Of a stretch of 32,000 nucleotides of DNA, positions 13,142 through 31,909 are shown one piece after another. The translations under genes were made by a program, and so were the position numbers. Numbering within the stretch: position 1 is the first letter of the stretch; every line of letters starts with the position of its first letter. Below the pieces are notes generated by a model. It had not been told where the DNA came from and made no database searches. It saw nothing but the letters and a program-made list of their open reading frames with translations. The stretch is from positions 21,003 to 53,002 of the forward strand of contig BBVC01000019.1 of the NCBI GenBank assembly GCA_001192655.1, given 5' to 3'. This stretch comes from Caedimonas varicaedens. Its GTDB lineage: Bacteria > Pseudomonadota > Alphaproteobacteria > Caedimonadales > Caedimonadaceae.

Positions 13142-13246
13142 GTACGTTTATTCTGCATATGGGGTTACTTTTCTTCTTATATATTCGGTGACAGTAGTGA
13201 AGAGAGACTATTGAGCTTGTCATTTCTGAAAAGGGAGAGAATTTTT

Positions 13247-14524
13247 ATGAAACGTGTAAAAAATATTGCTATTGCGGTGTCCGGTACGGCCTTAGAAGTC
13301 TATGATAACACGCTTTATACGCTCTTTGCAGTTATACTGGGTCCTATTTTCTTCCCTCATGAGGATCCTTTCGTCGTTTATCTCTCGACTTTTGCCGCTC
13401 TTGCTGCTGGTTTTATTGCCCGCCCTATAGGAGGACTTTTTTTTAGTCATATAGGTGATCGTTTGGGTCGTAAGAAGGCCTTGAGTTGGTCTATTGTTTT
13501 AATGATTTTTCCAACGTTTATCATAGGTATTTTGCCCTCTTATGCTTCCATTGGCGTTTTAGCATCGATTCTTCTTGTTACTTGCCGTCTTGTACAAGGA
13601 TTTTGTGTTGGAGGAGAGCTTGGGGGGGCTATGACTTTTATTATTGAGTGTGCAGAGCCTAAGCATAAGGGATTTTATTCAAGTTTTATGGCAGTTGCTT
13701 CTTATTTAGGTGGTATTGTTGGAGCAGGATTTGGCTTTCTTTGTTTACAACCCTTTATGCCATCCTGGGGATGGCGAATCCCTTTTATATTTGGCGCTTT
13801 TATAGGTGTATTAGGGTATACCATCCGTCGTTACCTCACTGAAACTCCTGAATTTGTAGCAACTCAAAAGCAGGGAAAAATTTTGAAATATCCACTGGTA
13901 AATACCTTAAAATACCATAAAGCAAGCATGTTTCGAGCTATGGGGATTGCTGCCGGTGTTCTTGTTCCTTTTTTTATCGTCACGACTCATCTGAATGGTA
14001 TTTTAAAACTGAATTTACATTTTACATCATTGGATATTATGAAACTTAATTTGGGTCTCTTGACTTTTTGGACGTGTTTGTCTCCATTGATGGGGCTTCT
14101 TGCAGATCGTATTGGTGTTTCGACATTGATGGCAATCGCTTCTGGTAGTTTAGCGGTTTGTAGTTATCCCCTTTTCTTTTTCTTGGAGAATAACCTTCAT
14201 TCTTTTGAGGCTATTTTGTTTGTGCAGTTATGTTTGAGTACTCTTTGTGTTGCATTTGCAGCACCCTGTTCAGCTTATCTGACGTCTCTTTTTCCAACGA
14301 ATGAGCGGTATAGCGGTATTTCATTAGGATATACAATTGGTTGTGCTATGTTGGGTGGGACAGCGCCTTTAATTGCGACCGCCTTACTTAAGTGGACAGG
14401 AGATCAAAAAGCGCCTGCTTATTATCTGTTGTTTTGTGCTATAGGAGCGTTTTTAGCAGTAACGACTCATCCAACAGCTCGTTCTGGCCGCTTCTTTTTC
14501 TTAAAAAAGAGTGTTTTACAGTGA
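13247..14524 (+). CDS. MFS transporter, metabolite:H+ symporter (ProP-like) family (copy 1)
   Basis: About 12 predicted hydrophobic helices. MHS-family motifs are present: ALEVYDNTLY, RPIGGLFFSHIGDRLGRKK, CRLVQGFCVGGE, WGWRIPF. ATG 13247 is preceded by GGGAGAG. Confidence 0.88.
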   Translation: MKRVKNIAIAVSGTALEVYDNTLYTLFAVILGPIFFPHEDPFVVYLSTFAALAAGFIARPIGGLFFSHIGDRLGRKKALSWSIVLMIFPTFIIGILPSYASIGVLASILLVTCRLVQGFCVGGELGGAMTFIIECAEPKHKGFYSSFMAVASYLGGIVGAGFGFLCLQPFMPSWGWRIPFIFGAFIGVLGYTIRRYLTETPEFVATQKQGKILKYPLVNTLKYHKASMFRAMGIAAGVLVPFFIVTTHLNGILKLNLHFTSLDIMKLNLGLLTFWTCLSPLMGLLADRIGVSTLMAIASGSLAVCSYPLFFFLENNLHSFEAILFVQLCLSTLCVAFAAPCSAYLTSLFPTNERYSGISLGYTIGCAMLGGTAPLIATALLKWTGDQKAPAYYLLFCAIGAFLAVTTHPTARSGRFFFLKKSVLQ

Positions 14525-17638: not shown

Positions 17639-19048
17639 CTATGATCTTCTTTTCTTTTTAAAAGGTTTGCCTGAGCCATTGTTACCGTTTGGCGATTTTA
17701 ATCCACTTTCCTTAAAAGCTTTAGAAAAAAATGGCTTTTTAGTGGTTTTTTGAGAAGTCTTTTTTGTTCTGTAGTCAGCCGATGTGTCTTCTACTTTTTG
17801 TTCTCTGTTTTCGAAACTTGTGGAACTATTATGATTTCTATCAGAAGAAGGTTTTTGTAAAAATGTTCTTTTGAGCTGTATCCCGTCAGGTGATTTTTTC
17901 AGTTTATCAGATTCACTGGCAACTATTGAACTTTCTTCGCCGGGAATTTTCTTTTTAACCAGTCTTTCTATATCGCGAAGAAACGGTCTTTCTGATTTAT
18001 TACAAAAGGAGATAGCAACGCCTTCATTACCTGCACGTGCAGTTCTACCAATCCTGTGAATATAATTTTCAGGGACATTAGGTAAATCATAATTAATAAC
18101 ATGTGAAATTCCATCAACATCAATGCCTCGAGAAGCAATATCAGTCGCGACTAATACGCGCACATGACCAGCCCGAAACCACTCTAAAGCCTTTTGTCTT
18201 GCGGTCTGTGATTTGTTACCGTGAATTGCTTCACATCTAATTTTAAGAGATTTCAATTTTTCGTAAATTCTATTGGCTCCATGTTTTGTACGACTGAAAA
18301 CCAATGCTCTCGTGATGGTTGGATCTCTGAGAAGTTCTCCTAACAAAGCATTCTTATTCACCTGCTCAATAAAGATAACTCTCTGGTCAATTTTGTCCGC
18401 AGTAGAAGCAACGGGTGTAACTTCCACAGTAACAGGATTGGTTAGAATACTCGCGGCAAGGTTTGAAATATCCGTCGGCATCGTCGCAGAAAAAAGCAAT
18501 GTTTGGCGCTTGTGAGGAAGCAACTGAACGATCTTTTTAAGAGAAGGCAAGAAACCCATATCAAACATCTGGTCAGCTTCATCTAATACAAAGAATTCCA
18601 AAGAATTTAGATTTATATATCCTTTATTCACAAAATCAAGCAATCTTCCGGGGGTCGCCACCAATACATCAACTCCTCTTGAAAGTGACTGAATTTGTCT
18701 ATCATGCCCCACGCCACCAAAGATAGCTGAATAGCTTAACTTTAAGTTCCTGCCATAAGAGTGAAAACTATCGCTAATTTGCGCTGCTAATTCTCTTGTT
18801 GGCGCTAAAACGAGTGCACGAATCTTTCTAGGTGACTTAGGTTTTTTATGATGATCGAGATACTGTAAAATAGGTAACGCAAACGCGGCAGTCTTACCTG
18901 TACCTGTTTGGGCATATCCCAGCAAGTCACTCCCAGCAAGCAGATGTGGAATCGCCTGAAGCTGAATAGGTGTTGGCGTCGTATACCCTTCAGTTTTGAG
19001 AGCATTTAGAATTGGTGTAATCAAATTAAGCTCTTCAAATGAAAGCAT
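17639..19048 (-). CDS. rhlE: ATP-dependent DEAD-box RNA helicase (RhlE-like) with a basic C-terminal tail
   Basis: Q-motif GYTTPTPIQ, AQTGTGKTAAF, PTRELA, DEAD, SAT, HRIGRTARAG. The Lys/Ser-rich tail ends in KPFKKKRRS. Confidence 0.92.
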   Translation of the reverse strand: MLSFEELNLITPILNALKTEGYTTPTPIQLQAIPHLLAGSDLLGYAQTGTGKTAAFALPILQYLDHHKKPKSPRKIRALVLAPTRELAAQISDSFHSYGRNLKLSYSAIFGGVGHDRQIQSLSRGVDVLVATPGRLLDFVNKGYINLNSLEFFVLDEADQMFDMGFLPSLKKIVQLLPHKRQTLLFSATMPTDISNLAASILTNPVTVEVTPVASTADKIDQRVIFIEQVNKNALLGELLRDPTITRALVFSRTKHGANRIYEKLKSLKIRCEAIHGNKSQTARQKALEWFRAGHVRVLVATDIASRGIDVDGISHVINYDLPNVPENYIHRIGRTARAGNEGVAISFCNKSERPFLRDIERLVKKKIPGEESSIVASESDKLKKSPDGIQLKRTFLQKPSSDRNHNSSTSFENREQKVEDTSADYRTKKTSQKTTKKPFFSKAFKESGLKSPNGNNGSGKPFKKKRRS

Positions 19049-19200: not shown

Positions 19201-19560
19201 TTAATTGCGATAAGGACGACGCTCACCACCTCTTGGTGCTCCGCCACCGTCACGAGAGCGGAAGCCGCCCCCATCCTGACGAGGACCGCCTGGACGACGT
19301 CCACCACCAGCGTTTCCTCCGCCAGCTTCATTTACTTTTAGCTCACGACCTGCATATTCTTTTCCATCCAGATCCTGAATAGCTTTTGCAGCTCCTTCGT
19401 CAGATTCCATCTTAACGAATCCAAAACCCCGCGAGCGACCCGTGTGGACATCTGTAATAATTTTAACGGATTCAACTTTTCCCGCGCTACCAAAATACTC
19501 GGTAAGAGATTCTTCCGTTGCTGAGTAAGGCAAATTGCCTACAAAGAGTTCACGACTCAT
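19201..19560 (-). CDS. RRM-type (RNP-1/RNP-2) RNA-binding protein with a C-terminal Gly/Arg-rich (RGG-like) tail
   Basis: RNP-2 LFVGNL and RNP-1 RGFGFVKM. The tail reads GGGNAGGGRRPGGPRQDGGGFRSRDGGGAPRGGERRP. ATG 19560 (MSRELFVGNL) is preferred over the longer ORF. Confidence 0.88.
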   Translation of the reverse strand: MSRELFVGNLPYSATEESLTEYFGSAGKVESVKIITDVHTGRSRGFGFVKMESDEGAAKAIQDLDGKEYAGRELKVNEAGGGNAGGGRRPGGPRQDGGGFRSRDGGGAPRGGERRPYRN

Positions 19561-20152
19561 ATGTTTCTTTCCTTCAAATGAGATTCCAAAAAACCACAAT
19601 CACGTGAACTGCCAAGCGGGGTGAAAACTCTGCCTAGAGAATGTCGAAGGGATACTGGAACCTTTATGTTTAACAATACTATCTTAAAAAACTATTCATT
19701 AAGATAATACTTAGCCTATGCTAAATATTCAGAGATGTCAAGGAATATAGGGTCGTAATCTGGGCTGTTCAGTAAATTCTTGTAAAGACTGTTCAAAATT
19801 TTGATGATTATTATTTAAAATTTCAGAAATTATAAGCCTTCCAAGAGGATCAATCAAGAATCAGAAAAAATCCCGATAAAATGGCTCGATTGAGAGTATG
19901 AGCGCTCAATATCTTGAGAGTTAAGTAAGGCTCAAAACATCTCACAGGCCTTGTATGAAAATGCCCTTAATAAGGTGAAATTCTGCCATAACTTCATGAA
20001 TTTTAAGAAGATTCAGGGGTTCCCTCACTTTCTCTCAAAGATGGGCATTCTAAACATTGAGATAAAATTTTTGTCTAGAACAATATTACCAATTTTTATA
20101 TATGGAATTTTATTTAAAAATAACAATAAAAAGTGATGACATTATTAATTTA

Positions 20153-20180
20153 TTGACAAATATTATTTGACACTTATATT
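20153..20180 (+). promoter_or_regulatory. Candidate sigma70-type promoter for the 822-aa gene
   Basis: TTGACA (20153-20158), a 16-nt spacer, then TATATT (20175-20180), about 55 nt upstream of ATG 20234. Confidence 0.5.
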
Positions 20181-20233
20181 CCTATTAGTCATTTCTAAGA
20201 ATGAAATTTTTTGACTAAAGTGAGAGTGATCGT

Positions 20234-22702
20234 ATGTTTATGAGTTTTGCAAAGAAAAAATTTACCTTAACAATTTTATTTATCCTCAGCTATTTTAATA
20301 GTACTCAGCTTTCTTTTGCTGATTCTAAGAACGAAAGCCTTGGAGTCAAAGAAAATTTATTGGGAGTAAAAAATATAGATAAAGAAGGTTCAGGGGAAGA
20401 ACGCCTCTTAGAAGCGCAGCATAGGAATAAACAACTTTCTATAGCAAATAAAGACCTTACAGATCGAAATGAAATCCTTAGGAAAGAAAGAGATTTTTAT
20501 CTTAAGGAAGCGACTGTTTATAAGGAAATAGTGGAAAAGCTGGAAACCCAAAAGATACAAACCGTGGAAAATCGGGCTTATGCCAATGAATCTAGCGGAA
20601 CTCAATCTATTGGTGGAGGTGAAAGTGTTGTTTCTACTAGATCTTATGAGTCCGTCTCAAAATCTCAGAATATAGAGCAAATAGGGAAAGAAGAAGAGGG
20701 AATAATTGATTATACTGAAAATAAAGATACAGATAAAAAGATAGAAAATGAAGATAATTACATTAGAAATCTAGAAAATCAATTACAATTAGTAAATACA
20801 ATGATCCAAAATTTACAAAAGAAAACATCTTCGGCGAATTTCTCGCCTCTGGATTCTTTGTCAATCATTATAAAGGAACAAAAAGAATTTCAAGAAGAAC
20901 ATAAATTACTTCAAGAGAAATGTACTGCAATGGCAGGAGTTTATGTAGATAATTTAAGACTACAAGAGGAAAATAAACGATTAAGAGAAGGTATAGACCC
21001 TGACCTTGAAGGAAAAATTTCTGCTCTGCAGGCACACCTTGACAGATTAAGCGGCGGTGCCACTCCGGAAGAAAATGAACAAAGAGCTAGAGAAATTTCT
21101 GCTCTGCAGGCACAGCTTGACAGATTAAGAGGCGGTGCCAATCCGGAAGAACATGAACAAAGAGTTAGACAAATTGCTACTCTGCAGGCACAGCTTGACA
21201 GATTAAGAGGCGGTGCCACTCTGGAAGAACATGAACAAAGAGGTAGAGAAATTTCTGCTCTGCAAGCGGAAGTCGCAAGACTAAGTCAAAGGGCAGACCC
21301 TGCGGAGTATGCAGCAAGAGTCAGAGAAATACAAGAGCGAGATGTAGATATTTCCACTTTGCAAGCGGAAGTTGCAAGACTACGTAATGGTGAAGAGTTA
21401 GCAGAGTATGGGCGAAAAATTAAGTCTCTCGAAATGGAAATTATTAGATTATTGGGGATGGCAGTAGAATCTCCTTCGGGTCAAACCCCTGTTTGGTTAC
21501 CGCTCGATTCTGATAATTTTTTTCACGCTGACCGTTTAATGTCTCAACCGACAGTTTCAGAGCAACCCCTTAAAGATAGTATGCAGCTGCTCAAAGATGA
21601 ATACGATAGAATAAAGGGGAACCTCATGGGGCTATCTAAATTGAATATGAAGGCTTTAGATGAACTAGATGTCAATGATGTTACAACTTTTGATGTGGTA
21701 GTACAAGCTGCCGCCCGTATTAAAGGCGTAAGGCTTCCTTTGGCTCAAGAATGTAAAAGGCTTTTTGAAAATACACTTGGAGTTTACAATGACTTTTGTG
21801 AGCAAAAAAAGCAAGAAATTCCAGGCTTAACTCGGTATATCAATCTTCAGAATATTTATAGTCGGATATTTTCTAAAGTTTCTCTAGATAAATTTGGAGA
21901 ATTAATGGAGCATTTCGATAATGCTACGGAGAGTTTTATCAACCTTGTGAAAGGAAAAGCAAGTTCACTAACCGGTGTAGAGGCTGGAGCTTATTTTAAG
22001 CTTATAAATTGGTTAGAATTAGAATATAAGTGTTTTACCTTATCTAATTTTATCAAGAGATATACTACTGCTCCTGTGCAGGCCGATAAAGACTATAATA
22101 ATTCACCTTTTGTTTTATTATGGAAGCAAACAGGTATGGGAAGAGATTTCAATTCTCTCAAATTGGCAACCACTACTCATCATAAGACTGGCGTTGTTAC
22201 GGCTGGCTTAGAAGAGCAAGACCCTTTCAAAATTTTCCGTCAAAAAGTTAAGGATAAACCTGTTAAATATTCGGATATTAGTGAGAACTTAATAGAGCTA
22301 TGCGAAAATATGTACATGATGAAATATTTGAATGCACGTTGGAAACATTTACAAACGACGCGTTTTGATCAAGATTTGGTAGGGGCTATCCGAGGATGTA
22401 ATTTGCGAAACAAAGATTCGAAACCTCTTTTAGAAGAAGGTGTCAAAGCCACGCTTTGTTCTATGTTGCAGGAGGATTTCCTTCAAAAACCTGCTATCGT
22501 TCATGCTACTACAGCTAAAGAGTTGGATGATAAATTAAGATCTTCTCTCTTGTATGAAAATGCTGAAGAGTGGCAAAAAAGTAGCAGGCCTACTCTGCGT
22601 GAAGATTTGATAGAAATCTATACAACCTATAGAGGTTTGACGAAAGGTGCTTTTGCTCTACATGCCAAAAACCCGAAAATCAAAGAATTCCACGAGGAAT
22701 AA
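20234..22702 (+). CDS. Hypothetical secreted coiled-coil protein with 26-aa tandem repeats and a C-terminal region of unknown fold
   Basis: 822-aa ORF. The N-terminus MFMSFAKKKFTLTILFILSYFNSTQLSFA-DS is Sec-signal-like. A Lys/Glu-rich heptad-like region follows, then ISALQAxLDRLxGGAxPEExEQRxRE repeats. I recognise no motif in the last ~390 aa (residues ~430-822). Confidence 0.8.
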   Translation: MFMSFAKKKFTLTILFILSYFNSTQLSFADSKNESLGVKENLLGVKNIDKEGSGEERLLEAQHRNKQLSIANKDLTDRNEILRKERDFYLKEATVYKEIVEKLETQKIQTVENRAYANESSGTQSIGGGESVVSTRSYESVSKSQNIEQIGKEEEGIIDYTENKDTDKKIENEDNYIRNLENQLQLVNTMIQNLQKKTSSANFSPLDSLSIIIKEQKEFQEEHKLLQEKCTAMAGVYVDNLRLQEENKRLREGIDPDLEGKISALQAHLDRLSGGATPEENEQRAREISALQAQLDRLRGGANPEEHEQRVRQIATLQAQLDRLRGGATLEEHEQRGREISALQAEVARLSQRADPAEYAARVREIQERDVDISTLQAEVARLRNGEELAEYGRKIKSLEMEIIRLLGMAVESPSGQTPVWLPLDSDNFFHADRLMSQPTVSEQPLKDSMQLLKDEYDRIKGNLMGLSKLNMKALDELDVNDVTTFDVVVQAAARIKGVRLPLAQECKRLFENTLGVYNDFCEQKKQEIPGLTRYINLQNIYSRIFSKVSLDKFGELMEHFDNATESFINLVKGKASSLTGVEAGAYFKLINWLELEYKCFTLSNFIKRYTTAPVQADKDYNNSPFVLLWKQTGMGRDFNSLKLATTTHHKTGVVTAGLEEQDPFKIFRQKVKDKPVKYSDISENLIELCENMYMMKYLNARWKHLQTTRFDQDLVGAIRGCNLRNKDSKPLLEEGVKATLCSMLQEDFLQKPAIVHATTAKELDDKLRSSLLYENAEEWQKSSRPTLREDLIEIYTTYRGLTKGAFALHAKNPKIKEFHEE
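21017..21427 (+). repeat. In-frame 78-bp (26-codon) tandem repeat array: three near-identical units plus two degenerate units
   Basis: Units at 21017-21094, 21095-21172 and 21173-21250 differ at only a few nucleotides. Diverged units lie at 21251-21328 and 21350-21427, separated by a 21-nt insert. Confidence 0.9.
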
Positions 22703-22803
22703 GGCAATTAGATTATGAGTGAATTGTGTGACTCAACTATAGCCTGGATTGCATCAGTTTTGATATACTCTTCGCCTTTCAAAACCCGGGGTCGTTGGAC
22801 TTC

Positions 22804-22825
22804 GGGATTTCCCTTCGGGAATCCC
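22804..22825. repeat. Palindromic hairpin GGGATTTCC-cttc-GGGAATCCC inside a GC-richer intergenic block
   Basis: A 9-bp stem (one G-U pair) with a 4-nt loop, lying between convergent genes. It contains CGGGAATCC, also present at 17565-17589. No flanking T-run on either strand. Confidence 0.4.
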
Positions 22826-22907
22826 ACCCTGTTGACATACTTTACTTACGCTGCGCGAGACTCAACGCTCATCCGCCTACCCAGATTTTGAAATCTTTTG
22901 GGTATCC

Positions 22908-24515
22908 TTATTTTTTCTTTTTAGAATTTTTGAGTTCTTTGGACGAATTTTTAGGTGTCAGTCCCAAAATTTCCCGACGATAATCTTCAAGGTCGCCGTC
23001 ATAGGGTTTAACAGTGTGATTCGCGACGAGCCATAAGCGATCCACAGTATGACGCAAGAGGTGCCAATCGTGTGTAATAAGAATCACCGCTCCCTTGAAT
23101 TCATTAATCGCCATCATCAGGGATTCACGCATCTCAACGTCCAGGTGGTTGGTTGGCTCGTCAAAAATCAGAATATTCGGTTTTTGGGAAGTGATAAGGC
23201 ATAAAACCAGGCGTGCTTTTTCTCCTCCTGAAAGTTTTTCAACAGCAATTTCAGATTTTTCCTTGTTAAAGCCAAAGCGTCCGAGGTGAGATCGAAGCTG
23301 TAATTCAGGTGTTTTAGGCATCCGATCAGAAAGGTGATCGAACCCTGTCCATCCTGCGTTTAAGTCTTCCATCTGATGTTGATGAAAATACCCAACCCGC
23401 ACTTTGGGAGAGCTATGAAAATAGCCATCCATTGGCTCAAGACGACCTGCAAGCAATTTGGCGAAGGTGGACTTTCCATTTCCATTTTTCCCCAGCAAAG
23501 CAATGCGGTCTTCCGGCGTAATACTGCCATTCAGGCCCCTCAAAATAATGTTTCCCTCATAACCTGTTGAGACTTTCTCAAAACTTATAAGAGGGGGCGC
23601 AAGCTTCTCTGGTTCAGGAAAGTCGATGGTTAATGTGGGGTCATTCAACATTAGGGAAATAGGCTCGAGTTTTTCAATGGCTTTAAGGCGGCTTTGCGCT
23701 TGTCGAGCTTTTGAGGCTTTAGAGCGGAATCGCTCAACAAATTTCATCATATGTTGGCGTTGCGCTTCAATCTTCTCATTATAGGCTGTCGCGTGCATCA
23801 TTTGTTGCTTGCGGGTCACCTCATAAAAGTCATAATTTCCATTATATTGGATGATCTTACCCTGGTGCAGGTGGTAAATACGCGTTGCGACAGCATTCAA
23901 TAATTGACGGTCATGACTGATAATCAACAGAGTATGTGGATAAGATTTTAAAAAGCTTTCAAGCCAAACAGATGCTTCCAGATCCAGGTGGTTGGTCGGC
24001 TCATCCAAAAGAAGAAGATCAGGTTCCTGAAAAAGGGCGGCAGCCAAAGCCACGCGCATGCGCCATCCCCCTGAAAAGCTTGAAAGAGGCTGGCTTTGTT
24101 GCTCATCATTAAATCCCAACCCCACGAGGATCTGTGCGGCACGGGCTTCGGCCGTATAGGCATCAATTTCTGTCAGGCGCGCATAAATTTCTCCGATCCG
24201 ATCAGGATCCTCACATGTTTCTGCTTCTTTTAAAAGAGCATCCATTTCCTGGTGTGAAGAAAGAACAAATTCCAAAGGTGTTCGCTCTCCTCCCGGCGTT
24301 TCCTGAGCAACTGTTGCAACTTTCATTTGACCTGTCAGGGTTAGATCCCCGGCATCTGTATGGACTGATCCAAGTATCATTTTAAAAAGCGTGGATTTTC
24401 CACAACCATTTCTTCCTACGAGTCCAGCATGGTGTCCTTTTGGCAAATGAAGATCTGCAGCCTCTAAAAGAGTCCGTCCACCAATTCGATAAGTAACCTG
24501 TTTTAATTTTAGCAT
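22908..24515 (-). CDS. ABC-F family ATPase (two ABC domains, no TM domain; translation-factor type)
   Basis: Two Walker A sites (GRNGCGKST, GKNGNGKST), two signatures (FSGGWRMR, LSGGEKAR), two Walker B sites (LLLLDEPTNHLD, ILIFDEPTNHLD), an inter-domain linker and a Lys-rich C-terminus. ATG 24515 is preferred over TTG 24530. Confidence 0.9.
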   Translation of the reverse strand: MLKLKQVTYRIGGRTLLEAADLHLPKGHHAGLVGRNGCGKSTLFKMILGSVHTDAGDLTLTGQMKVATVAQETPGGERTPLEFVLSSHQEMDALLKEAETCEDPDRIGEIYARLTEIDAYTAEARAAQILVGLGFNDEQQSQPLSSFSGGWRMRVALAAALFQEPDLLLLDEPTNHLDLEASVWLESFLKSYPHTLLIISHDRQLLNAVATRIYHLHQGKIIQYNGNYDFYEVTRKQQMMHATAYNEKIEAQRQHMMKFVERFRSKASKARQAQSRLKAIEKLEPISLMLNDPTLTIDFPEPEKLAPPLISFEKVSTGYEGNIILRGLNGSITPEDRIALLGKNGNGKSTFAKLLAGRLEPMDGYFHSSPKVRVGYFHQHQMEDLNAGWTGFDHLSDRMPKTPELQLRSHLGRFGFNKEKSEIAVEKLSGGEKARLVLCLITSQKPNILIFDEPTNHLDVEMRESLMMAINEFKGAVILITHDWHLLRHTVDRLWLVANHTVKPYDGDLEDYRREILGLTPKNSSKELKNSKKKK

Positions 24516-24568
24516 ACTTGTTGATAGCAAAAGTTTGTGAAGAAGACAAATTAAAGAGCATTCAGCCT

Positions 24569-25615: not shown

Positions 25616-26518
25616 ATGAAAACTAATATTGACTGGGATAAATACAAGACATTTTACTATGTTGCTAAAGCGGGAAGTTTTACGGCGGCAGGAGAAATCC
25701 TCAACCTGAGTCAATCGGCTCTGAGTCGAAGCATTCAAAATCTTGAGTATCAAGTAGGTATGAAGCTGCTTGAAAGGATACCCCGGGGAGTTATCTTGAC
25801 AAAGCAAGGTGAGGGACTGTTTAAAGCGGCAGAAAAAGCTCTTGAGGTATTCACGCGTGCAGAAATGTTGATGCTTGAACAAGAAGAAGAATTGCAAGGT
25901 ACATTGAAAATTGCGACCACTATGGCAATTGCTTCTGTGTGGATCATGCCATATATTGGCGATTTTCTGAAAAAAAATCCCAGAATCCGTCTGACGGTGA
26001 TAGGGAATGATGAAGAACTAGATCTAAAAACACGCCAGGCTGACGTTTCTGTCAGACCTTTTATGGCGAATCAACCCGAGTTGATACAGGAATTAATTTC
26101 TGTCTTCCATCTCAAGCTTTATGCGAGCTCAGAATATCTGGAAAAATATGGAACACCCAAAATGCCAGAAGATCTTGATCAGCATCAACTCATTGTTTTT
26201 GGCTATGATACCGTGAATCCCTACAGCGATATAAATTGGCCCCTAAAACTAGGAATGCCAGAAGGTTTGCTCAGAGATCCCTATTTATGTATCAATACGT
26301 CTTCAGGGATGCGGCAAGCTGCTGAGAATGGTCATGGCATTATCGCCCTTGCTGAAGAATTTCCTGGTTTGACAAAAAGTAATCTTGTTGAAGTGCTTTC
26401 AGAAATAGAAAAACCAAATATTCCTATCTATTATGTCTATCCTAAGCAGTTGGCTGGCTCAAAACGCGTCATGGCATTGGGAAAATATTTTAGAGAAAAA
26501 CTTGTTGCCTGCGTTTAA
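25616..26518 (+). CDS. LysR-family transcriptional regulator (copy 2)
   Basis: wHTH YKTFYYVAKAGSFTAAGEILNLSQSALSRSIQNLE plus a substrate-binding domain. It is collinear with copy 1 (KLYASSEYLEKYGTPKMPEDLDQHQLI versus KLYASPKYLKEFGVPQKPKDLDIHRLL; RDPYLCINTS versus RDPYLSIGTS). Confidence 0.9.
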   Translation: MKTNIDWDKYKTFYYVAKAGSFTAAGEILNLSQSALSRSIQNLEYQVGMKLLERIPRGVILTKQGEGLFKAAEKALEVFTRAEMLMLEQEEELQGTLKIATTMAIASVWIMPYIGDFLKKNPRIRLTVIGNDEELDLKTRQADVSVRPFMANQPELIQELISVFHLKLYASSEYLEKYGTPKMPEDLDQHQLIVFGYDTVNPYSDINWPLKLGMPEGLLRDPYLCINTSSGMRQAAENGHGIIALAEEFPGLTKSNLVEVLSEIEKPNIPIYYVYPKQLAGSKRVMALGKYFREKLVACV

Positions 26519-26536
26519 TAACAGAATTCTCTTACA

Positions 26537-26568
26537 CTTTCCTGGAAGTCAGGAAAGTTTCTTCTGTT
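26537..26568 (+). terminator. Rho-independent terminator after LysR copy 2
   Basis: Perfect 8-bp stem CTTTCCTG/CAGGAAAG with a 5-nt loop, followed by TTTCTTCTGTT. Confidence 0.7.
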
Positions 26569-26581
26569 ATATTTTAATCTC

Positions 26582-26610
26582 TTGAATAGTATAAAATATT
26601 TTTATATTAT
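26582..26610 (+). promoter_or_regulatory. Candidate sigma70-type promoter for MFS copy 2
   Basis: TTGAAT (26582-26587), a 17-nt spacer, then TATTAT (26605-26610). A GAGGGA RBS precedes ATG 26643. Confidence 0.45.
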
Positions 26611-26642
26611 ATTTGCCTAAGTTACATAAAGAGGGACACTGA

Positions 26643-27920
26643 ATGAAGGAACGTTATAAGGCTATTTTTGCCGCGATGATTGGTAATGCGTTGGAGTATT
26701 ATGATGTCATGCTCTACGGTTTTTTTGCAACGATGCTTGCTCCTTTATTTTTCCCCACGGGCAATCAGGCAACGTCTGTTATTGCAAGTTTAGGGACATT
26801 CGCGGCGGGGTTTGTCATGCGCCCTCTTGGGGGGATTATATTTGGTCATCTGGGAGATAGATTTGGTCGGCGCTATGCCCTGGTATTGACTATATTCCTT
26901 GTCACAATTCCCACTCTGACCATTGGTTTGCTGCCTACTTATGCCGAGATTGGGATTGCCGCTCCGGTCATTCTGGTTATTTGTCGCCTTTTACAGGGAT
27001 TATGTGTGGGTGGTGAATATAGTGGCGCTTCTATCTTTGTTATAGAGTATTCCAAGAAAGGCAGAGAAGCTTTTGCTGGAAGCACACTCTGCGCTTCTGG
27101 ATTCTTTGGGGGCGTTTTGGGAACTTTTGCTGGATTTTTTTGCACTCTTTCCTTTATGCCATCCTGGGGATGGCGCATACCCTTTCTATTGGGAACGTTG
27201 ATCGGGCTGGTAGGCTATTATCTGCGCTCAAGAGTCAATGAAAGCCCGGCATTTATCAGTCATAAGAATGAAGAAATTGCCCGGGTTCCTCTTTTAAAAG
27301 TCTTACAGAAAAGAAAAAAGAATCTTTTTTGTACAATGGGTGTAGGGGCGACCTCATTAATTCCCTTTTATATGGCTTCTGTTTATATGGGATATTTACT
27401 GAGTACAAAACTGCATATTCCTATCTCTCAAATTATGCTCATTAATGTGGGGCTTAACATTTTTGTGATGATTCTTCTTCCTTTAATGGGGATGGTTGCT
27501 GATAAGTTTGGTAAAAAGAATGTCATGCTTTTAACGGCTCTGATATCTTTCCTCATTGCTTATCCCTTGTTTTTTCTGCTTGAAAAAGATCTTTCCTTAT
27601 TAAATGTCATTTTTGTTCAAATCGTTCTTGGGATTATTACCGCTGGATTTGGCGCTCCTAGTACAGCTCTTCTTGCAACGTTCTTTCCTGTGCATGAACG
27701 GTATAGTGGTGTAGGCTTTGGATATGCTTTGGGAGGGGCGCTTTTAGGGGGAACAACTCCCCTTATTGTTGCAAGTTTGTCCAATATATTGGATTCAGCG
27801 CTTGCTCCAGCATCCTATCTTATGTTTAGTGCGCTTTTGGGAATAATATGTGTTACTCTGGGACAAAGAGAAGTGAGTTCTGTGCCCCCTCTGAAAAGAG
27901 GAGAATTTCAACACACGTAG
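26643..27920 (+). CDS. MFS transporter, metabolite:H+ symporter (ProP-like) family (copy 2)
   Basis: ALEYYDVMLY, RPLGGIIFGHLGDRFGRR, CRLLQGLCVGGE, FMPSWGWRIPF, and about 12 hydrophobic helices. It is collinear with copy 1 along its full length. Confidence 0.9.
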   Translation: MKERYKAIFAAMIGNALEYYDVMLYGFFATMLAPLFFPTGNQATSVIASLGTFAAGFVMRPLGGIIFGHLGDRFGRRYALVLTIFLVTIPTLTIGLLPTYAEIGIAAPVILVICRLLQGLCVGGEYSGASIFVIEYSKKGREAFAGSTLCASGFFGGVLGTFAGFFCTLSFMPSWGWRIPFLLGTLIGLVGYYLRSRVNESPAFISHKNEEIARVPLLKVLQKRKKNLFCTMGVGATSLIPFYMASVYMGYLLSTKLHIPISQIMLINVGLNIFVMILLPLMGMVADKFGKKNVMLLTALISFLIAYPLFFLLEKDLSLLNVIFVQIVLGIITAGFGAPSTALLATFFPVHERYSGVGFGYALGGALLGGTTPLIVASLSNILDSALAPASYLMFSALLGIICVTLGQREVSSVPPLKRGEFQHT

Positions 27921-29478: not shown

Positions 29479-29538
29479 ATAACGATCAAAAAAACATAAT
29501 AGTCCTTATGGGAGATCAGTATCAATAAAAAAGCATGC

Positions 29539-30077
29539 TTATTCCTTAACGAGTCTTTCAACTTTTATAAATTGTCCTAAATGATCTCCCTGTCCTATCG
29601 TCAGCATAAAGGGAGAAGGATTTAGAACATTGTGAATATTCAGGGAATCAAGATGTTGAAGCCTATTGATTCGGGCTAACGTAAGATGAGGACGATAGAG
29701 TTCACCAATATCATTAATACATGATAAGTTATAGTGCGTAACGATTTTCACAACTTTTTGCTGCAGGGTAATCAATTCAGGATCTCGTGCAACAGAAAGC
29801 TCAGCCCACCAGATTGTCTCGAATTTTTTATCTTTTATAAAACTGACTCCTGTAAAATGAGGCTGGGGAACATTTTGTAGAAGTCGCAGATCTTTTTCTA
29901 TTTGGTTGATAACTTTTTCAGAGCTGTAGTAAACCTGACAAATGGTGATATGGGGCAAGCTGTCGCTCCCCAGGATATAACGTTCAGCATTCTCAGAAAA
30001 ATGTTTTTGGCAGTTTCAGTATAAGGCTGGGTATGTAGAGCCAAAAGAGCGATAATATACTTTACACGAGCTGCCAT
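29539..30077 (-). pseudogene. 2H phosphoesterase superfamily (LigT/2'-5' RNA ligase-like) gene interrupted by a 1-nt frameshift
   Basis: Two HxTx motifs (PHITI, PHLTLA) sit in the 139-aa ORF, which begins only at a TTG. An ATG at 30077 with a GGAGG RBS opens a different frame (MAARVKYIIALLALHTQPYTETAKN..). The two frames can be joined at the A5 run (plus-strand T5 at 30004-30008). Confidence 0.6.
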
Positions 30078-30121
30078 AGTCCTCCATCCAGATTTGAACT
30101 TTTTTGATTATGCCAAACATA

Positions 30122-31909
30122 TCAGGTTTCTATGGGAAGAGTAATGGTAAATTCTGTATATTCTCCTGCTTTTGAGTTCACAGTGAGTGTTCCATGATGT
30201 TGCTGAGTAATAATTTCATAAGAGAGGGATAGCCCCAAGCCCGTACCACTTCCTGCAGGTTTAGTTGTAAAAAAAGGATCAAAAATATTCTTGCTGATTT
30301 TTTCAGGAATTCCGGGGCCATTATCCCAAATTTTGATGATAACATTTCTTTCGTCCTGGTGAGTTTCCAGATGAATTTGTGGTTCAAAAGGTTCATACGC
30401 TGCTGTTTTTTTCTGGTAAAGAGCATAGCAGGAATTATTAATCAAATTCAAAATCACACGTCCTAATTCTTGAGAATAGACTTTAAGATGAGGAAGATGA
30501 GGATCAAATTTTTTCACAATTTTGGGTATCAGTCCTTGTTGACGAAGTCCTGAAATTGCCAGAAGTGTGTTTTCTTCCACAAGTTGATTGAGATCCGTCT
30601 CTTCCAATTGTTCTGTTTTTCCACGTGCGTGCATAAGCATTGTTCGAATAATTGCATCAGCTCGCTTCCCATGCTCTTCAATACGTTGCATATTATGCGT
30701 TAAATTATAGAAAATTTCTGTTGCTTGGGTTGGTTGATCCTGAATATTTTTCTTAATTAAAAAGGATAGTTCAGTTATATATTCTCGTGAAAGCTCTGCA
30801 AAATTAATAATATAAGTAAGAGGATTTTTGATTTCATGGGCTATTCCTGCTGTCAAAGCACCCAATCCTGCAAGTTTTTCTTGAACAATGATTTGATTCT
30901 GGGCTTTCTTCAGTCCATCCAGAGCCTTTGTCAATGCCTTGTTTTTATTTGAAAGCTCTTGTGTGCGCTTATTGACCATGGAGTCAAGCTCCTTGATATG
31001 TAATTCCAAACGCTCTACGAGAATCTGGTTCTCCTGAAATACTTTCTTTACTTCTTCAAACCAGGGAATCCAAGGGTCAGGAATGTCCTTATATCCTTTT
31101 TCTTCATCATGGGCGCGATTTGCAATCAGATACACTAGTTTATGGGCAGGATGAATAAATTCTTGGGCAATTAAAGAGTTGGCAGCCCGTAAAATAACAA
31201 CGGCGAATATAATAAGGAACAAGACACTTGGCCCTATTTCTTCAAATGTTGCAATCAAAACTTTTGAGGCGGGTACGTAATAAATTAAAGACCAGGGTGC
31301 GTATCGTGATTTTACCTGGAAGATCCAGTATTTTCCTAATCGAGAGAGTTCTTTTTGGGGAAGTTTCTTCACTTCTTCGGGTTTTAATTCAGGTGGCAGA
31401 ATTTGATGGATTTTGATGATCGCTGCATTTTTTGGACTTTTGGAATTTGTATCTGCAATAACTGTTTCATAGTTGTTGACGATTAATAGGCGTCCATAGG
31501 GATTCGTAATTCCTGAAATCAATTCGTCAATAGATTTCAGTGTAAAATTAATTGCCACTACCCCTAAAAACTTTTCCTGTCGATGGATAGGTGCAATACA
31601 CGTCACCATTAATTGTTCCCCTTCTTTGCCAATATAGACGTCTGACCAACTTAATAAATTGCCATAAGGAAGGTGAAAAATACTTAAATCAGCCAGAAAA
31701 TGACTTTTAAGATTACTTTGATCCCACTTAAATTTTGTTGAGGGTTTCCAGGGAAAATAGTTTTCAAATCCAGATTCAGAGACATAGTAAAGAGATGTTA
31801 CAGATTTAATATTTTTTTTAATAGCCCGAAATACAGGATTTAAGTTAAAAGCCATCTCAATTTCCCGCTTTTGATCGGTGGTCAGATTGGAGAGAGAACC
31901 CTGTCCCAC
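30122..31909 (-). CDS. Sensor histidine kinase (Cache-like sensor region, one TM, coiled-coil, HisKA, HATPase_c); N-terminus unresolved
   Basis: H-box [12 protein letters not shown]-box LINNSCYA, G-boxes DNGPGI and GTGLGLS, and a hydrophobic segment [13 protein letters not shown]. The frame opens after a TAG at about 31958 and its first canonical start is GTG 31909 (ATG codons occur only further in, from MAFNL). Confidence 0.8.

Follow-up and report, generated by a model that had tools for sequence, protein, structure and literature searches.

Cva_00478, a putatively Sec-exported repeat protein with an unassigned C-terminal domain, is a candidate symbiont-host interface protein of Caedimonas varicaedens

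What kind of protein is encoded alone among housekeeping genes in an obligate Paramecium symbiont, and could it act where the symbiont meets its host? We asked this question of Cva_00478 (GAO97838.1), an 822-amino-acid protein of Caedimonas varicaedens (Holosporales, Caedimonadaceae) encoded in a 32,000-nucleotide stretch of contig BBVC01000019.1, hereafter the window, to which positions refer unless another locus is named. C. varicaedens, the "kappa" killer endosymbiont of Paramecium, carries R-bodies and resides in the cytoplasm or the macronucleus depending on the host (PMC11909080). Its draft genome holds 1,726 coding sequences; 588 of them encode hypothetical proteins, and signal peptides are predicted for 86 (PMC4645214). 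Cva_00478, by its leader, would be one of these 86. The mechanisms by which Holosporales interact with their hosts are poorly understood and the secreted molecules are unknown (PMC11909080). So far no factor that Caedimonas secretes has been identified, hence the value of a candidate, and our literature search found no paper discussing Cva_00478. A preliminary description made from the sequence alone had proposed an orphan, secreted, coiled-coil repeat protein of an intracellular bacterium, possibly an effector or a surface protein. The guess at the source was right, and the analysis below retains much of the rest, with corrections to the repeats, the domain boundary, the orphan status and the effector role.

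Cva_00478 is a real, intact and expressed-looking gene. The coding sequence (20234..22702, + strand, 822 amino acids plus stop) starts with ATG, is uninterrupted in the list of open reading frames exactly as first described, and carries the database label "hypothetical protein". Residues 1-29 (20234..20320, +) have the form of a Sec/signal-peptidase-I-type signal peptide, MFMSFAKKKFTLTILFILSYFNSTQLSFA followed by DS, in which three lysines (residues 7-9) precede a 12-residue hydrophobic core, FTLTILFILSYF (residues 10-21), and then S27-F28-A29 directly before D30. The classical leader that had been noted earlier is therefore present, as judged by inspection. It contains no cysteine, so no lipobox, and no twin arginine, and by inspection it fits what is expected of a Sec/signal-peptidase-I substrate. 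It is also the sole hydrophobic segment of the protein, with no hydrophobic 15-mer elsewhere. Judging from this leader, Sec export of the product is very probable, and signal peptidase I probably cleaves between A29 and D30.

The other end of the protein is its conserved part. The C-terminal region had been placed at residues ~430-822 and left unassigned; alignments move its boundary to residues 386-822 (21389..22699, +), a domain of ~435 amino acids predicted by AlphaFold2 to comprise about 20 helices. The model, built from an 11-sequence alignment, has a mean predicted local distance difference test score (pLDDT) of 89.9 and a predicted template modelling score (pTM) of 0.79, with only isolated beta bridges besides the helices. 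Alignment of the 8 full-length family members identified 35 invariant residues, among them G408, G416, T418, W421, H431, D479, D482, Y518, Y535, Q539, E597, E691, K738, K762, W780, R789, Y796 and Y799. The protein ends in a near-invariant tail, NPKIKEFHEE (residues 813-822; 22670..22699, +), whose P814, I816, E818 and H820 are likewise invariant; the model shows this tail ordered and lying against the rest of the domain, at a pLDDT of about 87.

This domain matched nothing in the libraries searched. Searches of Pfam, NCBIfam, PHROGs and PADLOC returned nothing near threshold for the window protein or five distant relatives, a phmmer search of the PDB with the window protein gave only coiled-coil noise, and a profile of 11 C-terminal domains found zero PDB matches even at E <= 10. 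Foldseek retrieved no PDB structure at E <= 0.001, the best being an arginyl-tRNA synthetase (E = 0.044, template modelling score 0.16), and no match to the domain model in BFVD. Comparison of one half of the domain with the other by hhalign did not reveal an internal duplication (probability 0.5%). Neither its sequence nor, in the libraries searched, its fold thus assigns the domain to a known family; the suspicion of a housekeeping family, raised as a check on the preliminary description, found no confident match by sequence, profile or fold. The alignments give solid grounds for regarding the domain as the functional unit that a very small family, not described before, has conserved, and the model makes a new fold possible.

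Between leader and domain lies a variable N-terminal region (residues 30-260; 20321..21013, +) followed by repeats. Residues 31-255 are composed of 14% E, 10% K, 9% L and 8% N, in keeping with the Lys/Glu/Asn-rich composition reported before; the heptad character reported with it holds for one segment only, as a crude test of a/d contrast rose above the 95th percentile of shuffled sequences solely at residues 164-204. AlphaFold2, at low confidence, places long helices at residues 54-105, 166-200 and 205-252 and a Ser/Gly/Glu-rich disordered linker at residues 106-165. The repeats occupy residues 261-398 (21014..21427, +) and number five, three canonical and two degenerate, with the 26-residue consensus I-S-A-L-Q-A-x-L-D-R-L-R-G-G-A-x-P-E-E-x-E-Q-R-x-R-E. 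In the DNA they appear as a 78-bp tandem repeat of 3.2 copies with 91% matches (21015-21264, Tandem Repeats Finder). In each unit a predicted helix gives way to a GG-x-x-P turn, and the last unit continues into the helix that opens the C-terminal domain. The repeats are therefore real, but "coiled coil" overstated their nature: since a GG-P turn breaks the array every 26 residues, it is better described as of helix-turn type than as an uninterrupted coiled coil. Close relatives carry 1, 3 or 4 canonical units. A weak Pfam match to FlxA-like (PF14282) at residues 286-325 (E = 0.019; 15.5 bits against a gathering threshold of 26.3) recurs as a precomputed "faint" match on the relative P0001, the sole database label on any relative. 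We rejected membership in this family, the match being compositional (helical and Q/L/R-rich) and leaving the C-terminal domain uncovered.

How widely is this protein distributed? The term orphan proved nearly right, except that a small family of about 10 clusters exists. A word-indexed search of 5.8 billion clusters found 4 relatives with the full protein and 2 more with the C-terminal region alone, and an exhaustive HMMER search with the C-terminal region against 1.84 billion representatives at 50% identity found 10 proteins in all. A profile search of a large protein set returned only members already known, none of 185,579 GTDB species representatives yielded a relative in a pattern-plus-tblastn scan, plasmid and phage collections held no match to the domain, and a scan of metagenome contigs added 3 loci from the same lineages. 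The family is accordingly far from ubiquitous. Two taxonomic labels of metagenome-assembled genomes look wrong: locus L087 (GCA_050954885.1) is a 36%-GC contig called Janthinobacterium lividum, and P0020 (MFI0478874.1) lies on a 4.2-kb contig called Candidatus Rhabdochlamydia sp. although its protein is at least 90% identical to Caedimonas-lineage sequences.

Genomic position follows relatedness. The close relatives P0001, P0002 and P0023 (92-98% identity) occupy the same slot as the window gene, between XerC/D-AccA-DEAD-RRM on one side and ABC-F-aldolase on the other. P0003 and P0004 (64-66% identity) are located elsewhere, beside insertion-sequence genes, and the deeper relatives P0006, P0007, P0008/L093, P0010 and P0052 (24-49% identity) each lie in a different housekeeping neighbourhood, so that synteny is confined to near-identical Caedimonas-like contigs. 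In the relocated copies L001 (2347-2513) and L003 (737-903), homology to the window (20229-20300) starts 5 nucleotides before the ATG. Their reading frame extends upstream into a 153-amino-acid N-terminal LysR fragment, and because it remains open into this truncated gene, gene callers report LysR fusions of 896-937 amino acids; the sequence AAGGA stands 8-12 nucleotides ahead of the internal ATG. Downstream are an IS607-like resolvase plus TnpB in L001 (5786-7469) and an IS110-type transposase fragment in L003 (3577-3870). The comparison of GC content with the flanks that had been suggested gave a uniform answer, the gene being lower in 5/5 lineages measured (the window, L001/L003, L087, L088 and L089).

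Every full-length member with a complete N-terminus combines a signal-peptide-like N-terminus with the same ~435-amino-acid domain, and the middle part differs. Leaders analogous to that of the window protein were recognized by inspection in P0001, P0007, P0008, L093, P0010, P0023 and P0052; that they are conserved across lineages only 24-49% identical argues that the leader is functional. Helical repeat regions precede the domain in the window protein and P0007. In P0008 the middle consists of a shorter Leu/Lys/Asn-rich region and then a Ser/Pro-rich stretch, in P0010 of a duplicated ~150-amino-acid region with a shared GFSDxE...RWT motif, and in P0052 of a Pro/Ser/Thr-rich linker. These alternative modules of P0008, P0010 and P0052 had no Pfam, NCBIfam or PDB match. 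P0006 was called without its N-terminus, its locus being split into two reading frames of 205 and 607 amino acids, 30 nucleotides apart. ABC exporter genes occur a few kb downstream of P0008/L093 and P0010 (L088 8167-12684; L093 6930 onward; L089 3852-5621), and L088 has two of them followed by an AprE/HlyD-type adaptor. This proximity at distant loci is probably coincidental, as no such genes flank the Caedimonas copies.

The short-range evolutionary rates set the gene apart from its neighbours. We compared the window with L090, which carries an intact 822-amino-acid orthologue in the same synteny, and estimated nonsynonymous (dN) and synonymous (dS) divergence. The whole protein is 91.7% identical (dN 0.040, dN/dS 0.64); the corresponding values are 88.0%, 0.058 and 0.94 for residues 31-255, 86.9%, 0.063 and 0.40 for the repeats (residues 256-385), and 95.2%, 0.024 and 0.62 for the C-terminal domain. 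By comparison, nine neighbouring genes are 97.4-100% identical with dN of 0-0.012 and dN/dS of 0-0.34 (median near 0.08; undefined for the RRM gene, where dS = 0). Cva_00478, with a short-range dN/dS of 0.5-0.64, is thus the fastest-evolving gene of its syntenic block, 5-8 times faster than its neighbours. Over a deeper divergence (window against L001 and L003, dS about 0.6-0.7), dN/dS is 0.22 for the C-terminal domain and 0.56 for the N-terminal part, and at this depth the domain is under purifying selection.

The gene has also been interrupted in nature. A CAA-to-TAA nonsense change at codon 216 (window 20879-20881) leaves reading frames of 215 and 590 amino acids in L004 (9305-11773), L005 and L006, which represent one lineage recovered in three independent assemblies from different samples. 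The L004-type split and that of P0006 fall at about the same place. Between L001 and L003 the first 385 codons are identical in DNA and the C-terminal domain has 78 substitutions (dS 0.089), a pattern that suggests either a recombination mosaic or a chimeric metagenome assembly. Taken together, there is a solid case that Cva_00478 behaves as a fast-evolving, dispensable and relocatable accessory gene in an obligate protist symbiont.

At its own locus the gene is flanked on both sides by housekeeping genes on the other strand, so the isolation remarked on earlier is genuine. Upstream and divergent are genes for an RRM RNA-binding protein (19201-19599, -) and a DEAD-box helicase (17639-19048, -); downstream and convergent, on the strand opposite to Cva_00478, are an ABC-F ATPase (22908-24530) and, beyond it, a class II aldolase. 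The remaining genes of the window are also housekeeping genes, including those for Rpe, enoyl-CoA hydratase, Mfd (GAO97824.1), RimM, TrmD, pyruvate-dehydrogenase-type E1/E2, LysR, MFS, XerC/D, AccA (GAO97835.1) and a sensor kinase. The Mfd and AccA sequences agree exactly with these two C. varicaedens entries, and GAO97838.1 is an 822-residue member of the 90% cluster to which the target belongs. The AT-rich gap that had been estimated at roughly 630 bp is a non-coding spacer of 634 bp (19600..20233) with 31.2% GC against 41.3% for the whole window, in which, as in Cva_00478 itself, Rfam has no match at E <= 1. The near-consensus element TTGACA-N16-TATATT is indeed present at 20153..20180 (+) and is a promoter candidate by its consensus match, agreeing at 11/12 positions as the best match of the region, even though promoter-like matches as a class are not enriched (14 found against 11.1 +/- 3.1 in shuffles). 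It is unchanged in L004 and L005. A Shine-Dalgarno-like GTGAGAG (20220..20226, +) can be read 7 nucleotides 5' of the ATG, and a terminator-like GC-rich hairpin (22785..22806, +) with a 9-bp stem, 6 GC pairs and a weak T-tract lies 83 nucleotides past the stop.

The spacer is 98.6% identical to that of L004 and 95.7% to that of L090, and is absent from the relocated copies L001 and L003. We considered whether it is a decayed LysR remnant, by analogy with the LysR fused ahead of P0003/P0004, and rejected this because tblastn gave only E = 2.3. The L001/L003 homology in fact stops 5 nucleotides before the ATG. Its high identity to L004 was also considered as a sign of selective constraint; divergence across the block is patchy, 0-9% per 250 nucleotides, and recombination mosaicism is the simpler explanation because the adjacent RRM gene is near-identical too and the L090 spacer is only 95.7% identical. 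Across 10800-32000 compared with L004, the interval 19251-20750, which holds the RRM gene, the spacer and the 5' part of Cva_00478, diverges by 0.9% and 22251-23250 by 0.6%, and this patchiness suggests recombination tracts between Caedimonas-like lineages. The RRM protein has a Gly/Arg-rich (RGG-like) C-terminal tail and hardly varies between lineages, its gene showing 0 synonymous changes relative to L004 and L090. Farther along, 29501-30250 shows ~45% mismatch plus gaps against L004 within a syntenic block otherwise 91-100% identical; this patch spans a 139-amino-acid reading frame (29539-29958, -) without a Pfam match and looks like a replaced or hypervariable segment. Other genes of the window are disrupted in sister lineages as well: the MFS gene at 13211-14524 is broken into 68 and 353 amino acids in L004, and of the LysR plus MFS genes at 25616-27920, L090 has the second LysR cut to 122 amino acids and lacks the adjacent MFS.

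What, then, might the protein do? We tentatively favour, as a reading that comes close to an even prospect, that it acts extracytoplasmically at the symbiont-host interface, either surface-exposed or released. Sec would export the protein and signal peptidase I would cleave it after A29, leaving a modular mature protein of ~793 residues. Its N-terminal part would form an elongated, largely helical and partly disordered stalk, a variable spacer whose length would be set by expansion and contraction of the 26-residue helix-turn repeats, and the stalk would bear the compact all-alpha ~435-residue domain as the conserved functional unit, which may bind or modify a ligand of the host or the envelope outside the bacterial cytoplasm. 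That the protein faces the host is what we infer from rapid evolution, repeat polymorphism, swapping of N-terminal modules, loss in one lineage and relocation, all of which fit such a place, and from the precedent, in the same order, of the 89- and 63-kDa periplasmic proteins of Holospora that are released during infection. A ligand-binding or enzymatic role for the domain is a further inference. The host-interaction part of the preliminary description agrees with these features, whereas its term "effector" finds no route or domain to support it.

Several observations weigh against a place at the host interface. A Sec leader alone delivers a protein only to the periplasm, and no outer-membrane route (type II secretion system, type V beta-barrel or TolC partner) was seen within the 32-kb window. 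Type VI substrates, moreover, normally carry no Sec leader. For delivery in the Holosporales, a review puts a type VI system forward as the chief candidate (PMC11909080). No eukaryote-like domain or recognizable catalytic motif was found in the protein. Relaxed constraint, as the genome erodes, could account equally well for the high dN/dS and the nonsense allele; in sister lineages the MFS and LysR genes nearby are disrupted too. A bolder extension of the host-interface reading, which we consider rather doubtful, is that the C-terminal domain represents a new fold defining an effector family that occurs only in protist-associated bacteria. The protein would be exported by Sec and then pass through the outer membrane into the Paramecium cytoplasm or macronucleus, where the invariant His/Asp/Glu/Lys/Arg/Tyr constellation, including the KIKEFHEE tail, might bind or modify a host target while stalk length varies under host pressure.

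Nearly as likely as the host-interface role is that of a resident periplasmic or envelope protein, be it a globular head on a helical tether or spacer or a stored protein, that makes no host contact in normal growth. The Sec leader is the only targeting signal found, the protein contains no beta-barrel, lipobox, LPXTG-like or T9SS-type (type IX secretion system) sorting domain, and the domain is modelled as all-alpha, so that the beta-barrel translocator of an autotransporter or trimeric autotransporter adhesin was not seen either. A helical rod with a globular domain is a common design for spanning the periplasm (TolA, Lpp), and Rickettsia RARP-1, for a long time taken for a secreted effector, is reportedly periplasmic. 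However, envelope housekeeping proteins are usually widespread and slow-evolving, whereas this one is known from ~10 clusters and evolves at 5-8x the rate of its neighbours; it is truncated in one lineage, moves around the genome and swaps N-terminal modules in a manner more typical of surface or secreted proteins. Relaxed constraint taken to its end would mean that Cva_00478 is decaying, or has no function, as the endosymbiont genome erodes, with its short-range dN/dS, the nonsense allele of one lineage, the P0006 locus also called as two reading frames and the disrupted neighbours in sister lineages all pointing that way. We judge this very improbable: the 2.5-kb frame is intact in the window, P0001, P0023, P0003/P0004, P0007, P0008, P0010 and P0052, the C-terminal domain has a dN/dS of 0.22 at dS about 0.6-0.7 with 35 residues invariant across lineages, and the AlphaFold2 model is confident.

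Two further proposals would turn the protein into a dedicated weapon or effector. No short motif of the family is better conserved than the extreme C-terminus, and a Glu-rich tail loosely resembles the E-block signals of Dot/Icm substrates; with ABC exporters within a few kb at three distant loci, one could imagine a type IV, VI or I effector recognized through its acidic tail KIKEFHEE, the N-terminal hydrophobic segment being incidental. This is improbable given that all full-length members with a complete N-terminus keep the leader despite 24-49% identity, that the tail is modelled as ordered and packed rather than floppy, and that the Caedimonas copies have no neighbouring ABC exporter or secretion gene. 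We know of no study that names the killer toxin of Caedimonas. C. varicaedens is a killer symbiont (PMC4645214, PMC11909080), and an exported, lineage-restricted protein with an all-alpha domain of no assigned function could be the toxin behind that trait, or a different alpha-helical toxin that damages membranes, reaching sensitive paramecia together with R-bodies. We regard this as the least probable of the explanations. The protein lacks a hydrophobic helical hairpin of the kind expected of ClyA, colicins or XaxAB, the signal peptide being its sole hydrophobic stretch, and Foldseek shows no likeness to any solved toxin. The domain is on no plasmid or phage record, no reb genes lie nearby in a context of housekeeping genes, and a nonsense codon truncates the gene in one natural lineage. 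Its polarity is also the reverse of that of polymorphic toxins (CDI, Rhs, MafB), which join a conserved N-terminal trafficking region to a variable C-terminal toxin with an immunity gene next to it: here the N-terminus varies, the C-terminus is conserved, and the next gene downstream is the convergent ABC-F gene, with nothing immunity-like.

Cva_00478 can be put to the test as a specific candidate for a protein of the symbiont-host interface. It is a lead and not yet a discovery, still one orphan among the 588 hypothetical proteins of its genome. Among the systems with which it invites comparison, RARP-1 likewise comes from an obligate intracellular alphaproteobacterium, is lineage-specific and partly disordered, has a Sec leader and was long an effector candidate. 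It carries ankyrin repeats and has no sequence or fold relationship to Cva_00478, for which it serves as a caution and not as a relative. The Ehrlichia/Anaplasma proteins TRP32/47/120 share with Cva_00478 their restriction to a lineage of obligate intracellular alphaproteobacteria and in-frame repeats that vary in copy number between strains. They are host-interaction proteins, a role for which Cva_00478 is only a candidate. They are also type I secretion substrates without a Sec leader, in which acidic, Ser-rich and disordered repeats carry the function; Cva_00478, in contrast, has helix-turn repeats and a Sec leader, and its conserved part is a folded 435-residue C-terminal domain.

The nearest parallel comes from Holospora obtusa, whose 89-kDa and 63-kDa periplasmic proteins are described, in two sources (PMC5911502, PMC11909080), as released towards or into the host during infection; the primary reports cited there are Iwatani et al. 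2005, Abamo et al. 2008 and Fujishima et al. 2023. An exhaustive HMMER search with the C-terminal domain gave no Holospora-annotated match in a library where the presence of a Holospora sequence is unconfirmed. There are differences: Caedimonas has no described infectious form of the Holospora type with an enlarged periplasm, and PMC5911502 groups the 89-kDa protein as predicted to be non-classically secreted, whereas Cva_00478 has a classical leader. The Holospora proteins resemble Cva_00478 in belonging to the order Holosporales and to symbionts of Paramecium, in being large, lineage-specific and exported to the periplasm, and in having no assignable enzymatic domain. A Sec-exported, repeat-bearing, lineage-specific protein of an intracellular bacterium is, in its general kind, familiar; the C-terminal domain of Cva_00478 is not.

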